From Gekko japonicus (lineage: Eukaryota): DNA of 64,000 nt. Numbering within the stretch: position 1 is the first letter of the stretch; each line of letters opens with the position of its first letter. Under the pieces are notes generated by a model that was not told the origin of the DNA, did no database searches, and saw only the letters and a program-made list of their open reading frames with translations. This document shows positions 39,351 to 45,799 of this stretch, one piece after another. Both the position numbers and the translations under genes were made by a program. Where the stretch lies: positions 836,224 through 900,223 of the forward strand of contig NW_015161949.1 of NCBI RefSeq assembly GCF_001447785.1, given 5' to 3'.

Positions 39351-40055
39351 CTAAAAAAGTTAAGAAAAAGGTGCAAAAGCTGGAGATGAAGCAAGCTACA
39401 GAAGAGTCAAAGCTTTTACAGCTACAAATGGATAAAGCAAATTTGGTCCTACAGTTTCAAGGGGTCCCGGAAATTAAAGAAGAGAATCTGAAGCAATGGC
39501 TGAGTGAAGCAATAGCCCCAATGACAGATTTAACAGTGGAATACCTTTTGCAGCAAGATGGATGTGGTCTACAGGTCCTATTCATCGTACATCAAGAAAA
39601 ATAATCTGCCTGGTGAAATAGTGGTCAGATTTTCGAAGAGACATGTGAGAGATGCTATTTTGAAAGCAAATTCAGGAACACCCTTGAAAATTGGGGGCAA
39701 TAAAATCAGGATTTTAAAAGATATTCTATTTGATATAAGACAGAAGAGAAAGAACTATAAAGAATGAATCCTTTTCTTGCAAACAAATGGCATCAGTTAC
39801 AGGTGGTTAACCCCAGAAGGCATCATTTTCAAGATTAACGATAAAAAAGAAAAGATTGACTCTGTTTTTAAAGCACGTGAATTTCTGCGGACACAGCTTG
39901 GGGAACCAGAAGAGGGCAAAGAGGAGGAAAAAGAAAGCAAATCTGATGGCGAGTTGGGCTCGGGGTCTTCGGACAAGGACTCCCCTTCAGAAAAGGGGGG
40001 GGCTGCCCCCAAAAGCCCTTATAAACTGAGGATTAGAAAAGATAAGAATAAATAA
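39351..40055 (+). pseudogene. L1 ORF1p (coiled coil, RRM, CTD), disrupted by a frameshift and a stop
   Basis: LQFQGVPE..EENL, PGEIVVRF...VRDAILK, IRILKD...IRQKRK and ISYRWLTPEG motifs spread across three ORF pieces. Confidence 0.85.
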
Positions 40056-41700: not shown

Positions 41701-42548
41701 ATTTGTAGTTTGGCATGTATGCAGAAAGTGGGGAACTTTTTGGAAACTATTTCCTTTGTTCTCTCTCATACATGGTTTAGAAAACAAAGACCATGGAGCT
41801 TAGAACTAGTTAGACAGGATGTTTGTTATTGTAAATCCAGTGTAACCCTTTTCTCCTTTTATTTAGTAAAGTCTTTTTCTTAAACTGTATACACACATAT
41901 GGCTGCCTTCCTTACTCTGCTAAATATCCCAACAACTATAGCCCATTGTGGCCTTCTAGGCCTCTGACAGCCCATCCCTTTTTGTAGTACCAGAAGGACA
42001 GCAAAGCTCAGAGCTTCACTGAGCACATCGTGAACTGCTTGGTGATTGCCCCCCAATCCGGAAGAAAGACAGACACATTTCTTGGGTACTGAATGGGCCA
42101 CTTTATTAACTTCATTAACAACAATATCGACAACAATGAACAGCAAGGGCACTACAGATTGTGGCATGACCAGGCCAGGGGTCCTCGACCCCTCCCCAGC
42201 CATTTGTACTAGGGCGATCCACCCAGCCCCAGCTGGTAGCCAAATGTATGGCTCACAACCAGTCAGCATGGCAAGTGGATGATGGCCAGGGATAAGCCAG
42301 AACCCCCGAGCCTCGAGGCTCAAAGGGATGGCAATCCCGTGCCATCATCTAGGCGGTCAGCTTTCCCCGCCCCGGGCCTCAGGGCCCAAAGACTGTACTG
42401 GCAAGACCCCTATGCCCCAATCGGGGTTATATGCCGGTGGTCACCATGCCACAATCTGATAAACTAACATCCTGCCGCTAAAGTGACCGTCCTATTTAAA
42501 CTCAGCCACACCCCAGCCAATTTTTCCCTATCCTCCGTTGCAGTATGA

Positions 42549-42606
42549 GGTAGGCGAAAACACCCCCTCCCTTGGCCAATCTGGGAAAGGGCGAAAAATT
42601 CCTACC
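42549..42606 (-). other. Conserved hairpin with U-rich internal loop (ENE-like RNA element)
   Basis: GGUAGG-AAUUUUU-11 bp stem-loop-UUUUCG-CCUACC. The same fold is present at 11436-11494 (+) with compensatory changes. Confidence 0.6.
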
Positions 42607-42745
42607 CGGCCCCCATAAAGAGCAACCAGCCAATGCCCATACTGTCAACAGGGTGGGTGGGTCGAGCGATCAGGCGCGCACTGAAGGGGGGAGGCAGGGG
42701 CCGGCCTCACTGCTCCGGCCCCGCCCCCCGTTCAGTCCCGGATGC

Positions 42746-43152
42746 NNNNNNNNNNNNNNNNNNNNNNNNNNNNNNNNNNNNNNNNNNNNNNNNNNNNNNN
42801 NNNNNNNNNNNNNNNNNNNNNNNNNNNNNNNNNNNNNNNNNNNNNNNNNNNNNNNNNNNNNNNNNNNNNNNNNNNNNNNNNNNNNNNNNNNNNNNNNNNN
42901 NNNNNNNNNNNNNNNNNNNNNNNNNNNNNNNNNNNNNNNNNNNNNNNNNNNNNNNNNNNNNNNNNNNNNNNNNNNNNNNNNNNNNNNNNNNNNNNNNNNN
43001 NNNNNNNNNNNNNNNNNNNNNNNNNNNNNNNNNNNNNNNNNNNNNNNNNNNNNNNNNNNNNNNNNNNNNNNNNNNNNNNNNNNNNNNNNNNNNNNNNNNN
43101 NNNNNNNNNNNNNNNNNNNNNNNNNNNNNNNNNNNNNNNNNNNNNNNNNNNN
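42746..43152. other. Assembly gap
   Basis: Run of N. Confidence 1.
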
Positions 43153-43314
43153 CCGTGCCATCATCTAGGCGGTCAGCTTTCCCCGCCCCGGGCCTCAGGG
43201 CCCAAAGACTGTACTGGCAAGACCCCTATGCCCCAATCGGGGTTATATGCCGGTGGTCACCATGCCACAATCTGATAAACTAACATCCTGCCACTGCAAA
43301 GGCCAAGCCTCTGC

Positions 43315-43913
43315 TTAGGCCGTGCTCCCATTACTTCCTAAAGCTGCTCGAAGCCCTTGCTGAATCTCGTCCAAGAAAATGTCTAAACCTGCCTCCGACA
43401 GATGCACACCGTCACTCCGGTATAGATCTGTCGAAGCCACATGTATGCCAGGATGAGGCAAGTATATCCCTAGGCCCCCTTCAAGTGCTTTGCGAATTTC
43501 ACTGTTAGCCTTGCGCCGAGCTTTATCCATAGCCAAGGGCTTACAAGATGCCCTCCAAACTAAGCGTGGCACCATGGCGGACCATATAATTACCGTCCCC
43601 GGCCAACGCTCCTTAATAACTCGGAAATCTTCCTTCACCTGCAAAATCAAGGCCTTCCCCTTGATCAGGCCGAGATCATTTCCCCCTAAATGAATCAACA
43701 GGATATGTGGAGGGGGCCCAACACGCCCCTCAAACAACAAATACAATAAACTGGGCCATTGTAAGCCACGGTGCCCGAACCATTCCAGTGTGGCCACCTG
43801 ACTTAGCCCCAGCTGTGATCCCATGGGCCCACGCTTGGCTCGTCGTGCCGCCCAAAAGATAAAACTGTGGCCGCAAATCAAGATCCGCTTCCGCTCTGCC
43901 CGGCCACTCGTGC
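43315..43913 (-). CDS. SGNH/GDSL-type hydrolase (esterase) domain of the retrotransposon
   Basis: Block I ILICGHS, block III IHLGGNDL and block V DGVHLS..G in an uninterrupted frame. No ATG upstream of block I; preceded by a polypyrimidine tract and CAG. Confidence 0.85.
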
Positions 43914-43970
43914 CTGTAATGACAAAACAATCAACACAACAAAAGAACAAATTCACAGCACGCACAGCCC

Positions 43971-44375
43971 CTACTGACCGACCAGAGGCCGAACATACGC
44001 CCTATAGGCGGAGGACCGCCATCTACCCAGCCGCTGTATGTCCCTTTCAGGATATCCCATAGCAGCCGCTGTAGACGCTGCCCCAATCCTAAAAGAATGT
44101 GTCCCGAATCGTACCCCAGCAAGGCCAATCCGCCTCAGGGCAGCGGAGGTAACGGCCCAGAATTGGTGTCTGGTTAATGGACTGCCATCCTGGTGCTGAA
44201 AAAGCACACCTGCGCCCAACCCCCGCACAGCAAGGTAAGCTGCTACCGCAGAAACTGGGCATAACTCCTTTTCCTCACAGAGCCCAATCGATACAGTTGC
44301 CCCTCGACGTCGTTGATCGGTTTTAGAATGTCGCAAAGTTAGGATGACCCTGTCCCCCATCAAACGTTCAGTCCC
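43971..44375 (-). CDS. Tyrosine recombinase, C-terminal catalytic part
   Basis: SKTDQ, LCPV, HSFRIGAAS and LGRWRS.AY..YVR motifs of DIRS/Ngaro YRs. The N-terminal half with the first catalytic Arg is missing. Confidence 0.92.
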   Translation of the reverse strand, partial: GTERLMGDRVILTLRHSKTDQRRRGATVSIGLCEEKELCPVSAVAAYLAVRGLGAGVLFQHQDGSPLTRHQFWAVTSAALRRIGLAGVRFGTHSFRIGAASTAAAMGYPERDIQRLGRWRSSAYRAYVRPLVGQ

Positions 44376-44675
44376 AGATGCGGCGGTTGCCGCGCCCTGC
44401 TCTTCCTCCTGCAGGGCGGCAAAGGCGGCCCCCGGACTGCACGGGCGAGCCGGCAGCCCGGGAACCAAATTCTCAAGTTATACAGGCTTGGCCTATGAAC
44501 TCAAGCCTGGGTTTCATGTTCTCAGGGTGGTATAGTAGCTGCCACTTCTATACAGGTTTATTAGACCTCCACTGGGGGCAGGGGATCTCCTGTGCTTGGC
44601 TCCTGTCTCCTATTGCTGCTCGAAGCTGCAGCAGGAGAAAAAAAAAATTAAAGTCCGTCAGAATAAAAACACTAA

Positions 44676-45799
44676 GGCCCGGGTAACACGAGCGGGAAAA
44701 TCCGCACTGGAAGGGAGGCATTTTAGAGGCGGAGCTAAAAGAAGTGCAGGAGCACGATCTTACAGTCCTCCGCGGCTCTGTCCTCAGGCCGTCGGCAGCC
44801 GATCACACTAGGGAGGCAACAGCGTAGTCCCAGCAAGGTAACACAGCAGTACTGCATCACTGTGCATGCATGGGTCCCGGACGGCTGCTGGATGCCATGG
44901 GCTACTGGAGTGTTTCCGATCAGACGCCCACCTGTGCCACGCATTTACCCTAAGCTACTACCTTTTCTCCAGTGCCTTTTAAATCCACTTCTTCGGGCCG
45001 ACGTTACGGGTTGGAGATGGGTGTGCTACGCTTCTCAGATGTTGTGGTATGATCGTTGGGGAGCGGTGGCGCAGGGAGCTTAAGCACCTGCTAGTAACAA
45101 CAATAGCGAACAGCCATAATGGCTGTTCGAATCCCCACCGCGGCCGGAGTGAGCTTCCGGCCCTCAGTCCCAGCTCCCGCCAACCCAGCGGCTCGAAATA
45201 AACATCAAGTAGAGAAATGGGTACCTGTCTTAGAGGCAGGGGGCACCCTCCTCCTGGTTCCGTGCCAGGAGGTTAACGGCGGCGGCGGCGATGAGAGAAG
45301 CAAGAGAGAAGCGGCAATGAGAAGGCGGCGAGGAAGAACAATGGCGGTCCGGCAACCGTGGAGGCAACATCGGGCGGAGGCGGGGCCAAACGACGCAGCT
45401 GCGAGGCGACGCGACGCGGCTGGAGCCTGAGGGACGAATAGCCGAGCCGCAGTACGACAAGCAGCGTGCGGAAGGAAGCCCGCCGAGGATTGCCAGCTAC
45501 CCGGGAGTGCCGAGACTATGCCTGGAACTGCCTTGAGCCGCCGGAAAGTGTGGAAAAAGAAGAAAGGAAACCCGCCATCTGGGTGCCGTTAGGTAACCCC
45601 CCCCCGCACAAAATTGTGGCCTTAGTTAGGATCGACTACAAATGTAGTCAAAATTGTAAACCGCTCTGAGACCCATTAGGGGTTATGAGCGGTATAGAAA
45701 TCACATGTAAATAAATAAAATAAATAAATAAATCGTGCCCATTTGATGTGCCCTCTATCCATCCCTTTCGCGGGGCAAATCCTCCGTGTGACCAGGACC
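44676..45799. mobile_element. Harbinger-like MITE split by a SINE
   Basis: Left end ggcccgggtaacac and right end tttcgcggggcaaatcctccgtgtgaccaggacc match the 5578-6021 element. Confidence 0.7.
45057..45731 (+). mobile_element. Long (~675 bp) CpG-rich tRNA-derived SINE with L2-type tail
   Basis: A box tggcgcagggag, B box gttcgaatcc, Sauria-like core, tail tgtaaaccgctctgag...gagcggtatagaaat(aaat)n, and 5-bp TSD atcgt (45052-45056 and 45732-45736). Confidence 0.75.

Follow-up and report, generated by a model that had tools for sequence, protein, structure and literature searches.

Splice sites shared among gecko Ngaro-type retrotransposons suggest that their SGNH hydrolase is joined to the amino-terminal part of Gag

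Introduction

The window, by which we mean the whole stretch of 64,000 nucleotides of Gekko japonicus DNA analysed here, carries on its minus strand a reading frame for an SGNH hydrolase behind the end of a tyrosine recombinase (YR). As a sequence-only reading of the locus had pointed out, this frame has no ATG before its catalytic GHS block; in the window copy, the first methionine comes after it. How, then, would such a protein be made? The same reading proposed that a 65-nt intron, beginning in the last YR codons, takes out the YR stop, giving an in-frame recombinase-esterase fusion. An abstract by Goodwin and Poulter (2004) is said to mention spliceosomal introns in some YR elements. Hydrolase-bearing Ngaro elements are already known (PMC9210276 and PMC7192593); among them are the Ngaro-like DIRS-53_XT and DIRS-54_XT of Xenopus, whose hydrolase is given there as being without proven function (PMC9210276).

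Results

The element in the window

From the order of its open reading frames, its domains and its split repeats, the element in the window is assigned as a Ngaro-type YR retrotransposon with a hydrolase. In the order of the element, its features are the following:

44366-44471, minus strand: 5' part of repeat A1, the first ~105 nt (element 5' end); 95% match to A1 of the closest relative, L081
43971-44366, minus strand: YR C-terminal remnant, codons ~203-333; keeps H-x-x-R, W and Y, without the first catalytic Arg
43973-43979, minus strand: donor proposed earlier, G/GTCAGT (slash at the junction), made of Gly-Gln-stop codons; unconserved, at most a cryptic site of the subfamily
43914-43945, minus strand: predicted 3' splice site, T-rich tract and TTACAG, phase 1; conserved, 41 nt before the GHS Gly codon
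43315-43913, minus strand: predicted SGNH hydrolase exon; the split codon is followed by 198 codons, and GHS has no ATG ahead of it
43153-43295, minus strand: start of repeat B1, 143 nt with 99% identity to 42337-42479; the repeat continues into the N stretch 42746-43152
42480-42745, minus strand: repeat A2, its visible 3' part, with the sequence leading up to B2; 42661-42745 matches A1 of the relatives (95% to L081)
42045-42479, minus strand: repeat B2, element 3' end, placed by repeat search and comparison with relatives

The split direct repeats, A1 ... B1 A2 B2, are thus present, B1 and B2 being 99% identical over 143 nt; the A1 start and the A2 end of the window copy match consecutive parts of the A1 of L081, while part of B1 and A2 is N. 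The repeats, together with 20 longer stretches from this genome, give the element order A1, gag, RT/RNase H, YR, SGNH, B1, A2, B2. The relatives, 70-93% identical over YR-SGNH, carry a full 333-aa YR frame, preceded by gag and RT/RNase H frames (named from their order and from the RT/RNase H motifs in their translations). Pol stops at RNase H, where YR starts, and the SGNH frame follows YR. Homologs come from geckos and other lizards.

The YR remnant in the window matches the phage integrase family of Pfam (PF00589, E 1e-7). A1 (44471-44366) runs directly into YR codon ~203 of 333, with a 2-nt microhomology at the junction, and an apparent internal deletion has taken out gag and the donor within it, pol, and YR up to codon ~202. 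Because gag, pol and the first catalytic YR Arg are missing, this copy would make neither YR nor any fusion. The expectation that its unspliced RNA yields YR alone is consequently false for the window copy, in which YR begins at ~44366, after the first catalytic Arg.

Several other features lie in the window. A young repeat of ~670 nt at 45059-45733 has numerous copies that match at 93-99%, besides another group at ~86%. Its tRNA-like end and A-rich tail suggest that it is likely a SINE; its middle is GC-rich, and RNA reads cover it well. Another dispersed repeat, ~390 nt long, occupies 44670-45055 (copies 87-90% identical), and an acceptor-like T-tract with CAG is found at ~44625, outside the Ngaro element. 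The short frame that follows an N stretch at 39351-39604 on the plus strand, judged by eye from its motif, resembles a LINE ORF1 fragment.

The hydrolase domain

The hydrolase frame matches the GDSL lipase family PF13472 with an E-value of 1.6e-5, under the curated cut-off of Pfam. The S, G-N and D-x-x-H residues described earlier are all found, as S16, G49, N78, D167 and H170, together with the transposon-type residues H74 and S111, which are invariant in 37 aligned proteins; the counts for S, D and H are circular, their motifs having been used to select the copies, and those for G, N, H74 and S111 are not. Structure prediction, which had been proposed as a check, gave an SGNH fold with a pLDDT of 94.5. 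A structural search with this model returned 159 PDB matches at E<=0.001, with SGNH enzymes first, of the PAF-acetylhydrolase-like kind, and the best PDB match by sequence is 4C1B, the ZfL2-1 ORF1p esterase (E 0.003).

Median dN/dS values of 0.10-0.26 among 25 intact copies indicate, at the sequence level, that the SGNH domain is kept under purifying selection across subfamilies, which makes its translation likely. An in-frame ATG upstream of GHS is absent from 26 of 44 copies; the other 18 have one at scattered distances, from 15 to 150 nt.

A conserved acceptor before the hydrolase

The proposal that a phase-1 acceptor opens the hydrolase frame is well supported: in 43 of 44 distinct copies (37 picked by script and 6 read by eye), an AG occupies the same position, 41 nt ahead of the GHS Gly codon, and the same phase. 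Sixty loci were examined, of which 16 were dropped: 11 without the anchor motif, one with N and four duplicates. The AG is preceded by a T-rich tract and, in many copies, also by a branch-like CTAAC or TTAAC motif. The copies are kin, and these conservation counts, like the others given here, are not counts of independent events. The predicted splice acceptor before SGNH is conserved beyond chance. A Heteronotia keratin gene model (P0073) has an SGNH exon at its end, likely an exon captured through this strong acceptor.

A conserved donor within gag

Which donor would serve this acceptor? The gag alignment contains an invariant GT at nucleotide 422, within a divergent linker. It is the best donor in a 170-nt part of the gag linker, reading GTAAG in 42 of 46 loci, GTGAG in two and GTACG in one, and being deleted in the last; 46 of 60 loci could be scored (14 unscored). 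The donor is in phase 1 in 45 of the 46, phase having been no criterion of selection, and the exception has a 1-nt deletion upstream. The codon that it splits varies (Gly, Ser, Cys or Arg) while the GT persists. No conserved donor was seen in the 5' untranslated region.

In full-length copies, the gag donor lies ~140 codons into gag and ~3.5 kb upstream of the SGNH acceptor. In-silico joining was tried for 21 copies, selected for a stop-free exon 1, and both sites were found in 17. In 15 of these, the joined frame is open through D-G-x-H and encodes 324-342 aa; in the 14 of them that have no large N gap or insertion, the intron would measure 3415-3542 nt. Exon 1 starts with a basic stretch containing 9 K/R in 30 residues, followed by an acidic part, two short repeated helical motifs and the linker. 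These alignments suggest that the usual partner of the acceptor is likely the phase-1 gag donor and not the adjacent recombinase.

DNA copies carrying the joined sequence

Five loci on five contigs read ...AAGGAT G/GTGCTGTCAGC, in which the end of the gag exon runs straight into the start of the SGNH exon. At the same points, intact relatives have G/GTAAG after the gag part and TTACAG/GT before the SGNH part, ~3.4-3.5 kb apart. When the genome was searched with a Gag-SGNH gene model, 144 matches came up, of which three crossed the join, and two more loci were added; between 40 and 150 candidates were scored in each genome search and 266 loci were inspected overall. Reverse transcription of a spliced RNA would leave DNA of this kind. 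The five loci belong to a sister subfamily and, since at least four of them share one 5' break, probably have a single origin. Because a 3-nt microhomology (GGT) spans the join, deletion at the DNA level could produce the same sequence. Among the 266 loci, neither a joined copy of the window's own subfamily nor a gag-to-YR joined copy was found.

L131, L132, L133, L162/L193 and L167 represent a chimeric non-autonomous element, amplified to at least four loci (83-91% alike). Shared upstream sequence is followed by the acceptor and part of the SGNH from one family, after which a template switch leads to the spliced gag-SGNH join that belongs to another.

Gene models and a second acceptor

The gene models of lizards and a frog considered here are computational predictions. 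By blastp, 13 of 97 SGNH homologs have an N-terminus that matches Gag of this genome, and 21 do so when searched with a profile made of 17 of them; the Gag-SGNH models are typically 325-368 aa long and come from Eublepharis, Heteronotia, Anolis and Pogona. Some YR similarity is seen in 11 of the 97, and a whole YR C-terminus before SGNH occurs only in the frog model P0077. Among the best 120 of 506 YR homologs (183-583 aa), 14 combine the Gag amino-terminus with YR, and none of these best 120 has SGNH behind YR. Profile matches at residues 1-154 of YR proteins were rejected as SGNH: they are Gag, the profile alignment having contained Gag columns. In Anolis (P0029/P0115) and Pogona (P0039/P0112), isoform models share a common exon-1 end that continues into either SGNH or YR.

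In this genome, a phase-1 AG precedes YR in 37 of 39 copies; because it overlaps the ADALSRKQ motif of RNase H, its conservation is confounded by coding. An isoform from Elgaria (P0028) runs from the Gag amino-terminus through the first ~50 YR residues into SGNH, which suggests a third splice pattern, by the YR acceptor and a donor internal to YR.

A decayed Ngaro copy (L210/L211, G000:C7384:277381-283608), with pol and YR frameshifted, has its gag donor (G/GTAAGC) and SGNH acceptor joined in P0072, a DUSP12 isoform of Gekko japonicus; Heteronotia P0074 is the matching DUSP12-SGNH model. The frames for the Gag amino-terminus and SGNH are open, and the catalytic His is replaced by Leu in both. 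This DUSP12-adjacent copy is possibly a domesticated pseudo-esterase. A loose end of 36 letters in RNA run X1 agrees with the start of its SGNH exon and would start one base before its acceptor junction, which is suggestive only.

RNA reads

Public runs X12, X13, X14 and X1 were mapped on the window, and X12, X14, X1 and X2 on the relative L031; 3-12% of the raw runs were read across both mappings. No gag-SGNH joint was seen on L031, where depth at the gag donor is below 1, and no joint between the YR end and SGNH was seen on the window or L031, at a depth of 0-6 at the boundary. A 151-nt contig from X1 retains the YR-SGNH spacer, and one from X2 crosses it with ~72 letters between, as calculated from the record length. 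On L031, the alignment of an X1 contig extends 2 nt beyond the gag donor, where 27 more letters follow, and an X2 contig would end at the gag donor if colinear; both are suggestive only.

Alternative routes to the hydrolase

Much of the description of the 65-nt intron is accurate: 43978-43914 on the minus strand is 65 nt long, starts with GTCAGT and ends with TTACAG, letter for letter, both junctions are in phase 1, and the in-silico join is open, reading ...YVRPLVGTSGRAERKRILICGHS.... The sequence-only reading expected GT, AG and phase to be conserved among copies if the intron were genuine, and on the donor side they are not. Of 24 informative aligned copies, 13 have GT, 10 GC and one GG, and the GT is, from this alignment, the wobble of a glycine codon. 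Of the 43 copies with a readable YR end, 20 have a phase-1 GT somewhere from the catalytic Tyr to the stop, and none of the 43 has a phase-1 GTRAG there. GTCAG, as G/GTCAGT or A/GTCAGT, is kept in nine copies, all of the window subfamily, with would-be introns of 57-66 nt; in six of these nine, a GTRAG that matches better lies 4 nt downstream, in phase 2 and out of frame, and the close relatives L004 and L011 have lost the donor. The frog model P0077 does join a complete YR C-terminus to SGNH, but the other models with YR and SGNH (P0021, P0080 and P0087) leave the YR before reaching its catalytic W and Y. No copy without the spacer between YR end and SGNH exists among the 266 loci, the RNA contigs retain that spacer, and the window copy has no intact YR available for fusion, while the conserved phase-1 donor lies instead in gag. 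A conserved recombinase-esterase fusion made by this intron is thus improbable, and a minor cryptic 65-nt splice confined to the window subfamily may occur. A donor inside the LGRW motif was rejected; it is unconserved, and its use would remove the catalytic W and Y.

The hydrolase might otherwise be translated from unspliced RNA, by stopping and restarting at a nearby ATG or by readthrough or frameshifting from YR. In the L029/L047 subfamily an in-frame ATG directly after the YR stop (TAAATG) does lead into SGNH, and the 18 copies with some upstream ATG would also suit restarting, but the distances of these ATGs vary from 15 to 150 nt and most copies have none. Readthrough and frameshifting are disfavoured because SGNH falls in any of the three frames with respect to YR (19, 12 and 12 of 43 copies). 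The fixed T-tract with AG and the gag donor would be left unexplained, and we consider this route most improbable. The same low probability applies to the idea that the sites are real but that microhomology deletion produced the joined DNA, the spliced RNA being either rare or unproductive and serving, for instance, to limit full-length RNA. The 3-nt microhomology at the join, the frequency of such deletions in the family (L025, L165 and the window copy) and the lack of junction reads, at low depth, are all in line with it. However, purifying selection on an SGNH domain without a conserved ATG implies that a productive route must exist, the phase of the gag donor is kept in 45 of 46 loci, and none of those other deletions coincides with GT-AG.

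Discussion

In the reading that we favour, at a probability of about 85%, the gag donor of the genomic RNA is spliced to the SGNH acceptor and likely to the YR acceptor as well, with unspliced transcripts kept for Gag and for packaging. Removal of a ~3.5 kb intron, comprising the remainder of gag, pol and YR, would leave a subgenomic RNA, as retroviruses make for env, and full-length elements would yield from it a predicted product of ~335 aa, made up of the Gag amino-terminus and the esterase. Unspliced RNA would encode Gag and also serve as the genome. The second acceptor, at the RNase H end, would likely be joined to the same donor, giving a Gag-recombinase protein of ~470 aa.

A splice of this kind, acting at the level of the family, would explain how the Ngaro hydrolase gene is read in spite of having no start codon, and likely how YR, which also lacks a good one, is translated; it would define the actual proteins: a Gag-esterase and, likely, a Gag-recombinase. 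The strength of the acceptor would also explain why host gene models pick up the SGNH exon. By analogy, the basic and helical front of Gag that they share may allow both the esterase and the recombinase to assemble into the Gag particle, where the esterase would bind or deacylate membrane lipid; we regard the chances of this as roughly even. Somewhat better are those of the wider proposal, in which one gag donor and two acceptors would give Gag, Gag-recombinase and Gag-esterase, and geckos have kept a spliced Gag-SGNH beside DUSP12 as a catalytically dead host gene.

Retroviruses reach their 3' env frame by a subgenomic mRNA from which gag-pol has been removed. The gecko arrangement would differ in that the donor lies ~140 codons into gag, making the product a Gag fusion, in that a second acceptor likely serves the recombinase, and in that the product is an esterase and not an envelope protein. 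If true, a retrovirus-like splicing programme for three proteins would be undescribed for YR retrotransposons. The gag-SGNH splice was not found in the literature searched, which includes the available parts of PMC9210276, PMC6681497, PMC7192593 and PMC9341512; the founding Ngaro papers or Repbase may already describe it.

DIRS-53_XT and DIRS-54_XT, as described in PMC9210276, resemble the gecko family in having gag, RT/RH, YR and an SGNH frame and the repeat order A1...B1-A2-B2; the window copy differs from them by its apparent internal deletion. The SGNH frame is a separate, overlapping ORF in that account, whereas in the gecko family it would be a second exon, likely fused to the Gag amino-terminus; neither "intron" nor "splic" occurs in PMC9210276.

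The closest parallel for the predicted product is ORF1p of ZfL2-1, which consists of a coiled coil, a basic motif, a linker and an esterase that is active and binds lipid in vitro (PMC3905857; 4C1B). The two share the catalytic S, G, N, D and H, and H191 and S228 of ZfL2-1 correspond to H74 and S111 of the gecko protein. They also share a layout, with a self-associating or basic amino-terminus, a poorly conserved linker and an esterase. Activity and lipid binding are demonstrated for ZfL2-1 ORF1p, whereas the gecko esterase is predicted from its sequence and model. ZfL2-1, a non-LTR element, encodes this layout in one unspliced ORF, whereas the gecko YR element would build it by splicing. A YR element would thus reach, by another route, the front-end-plus-esterase layout of a LINE ORF1p, which makes the lipid and membrane idea testable in a second class of retroelements.
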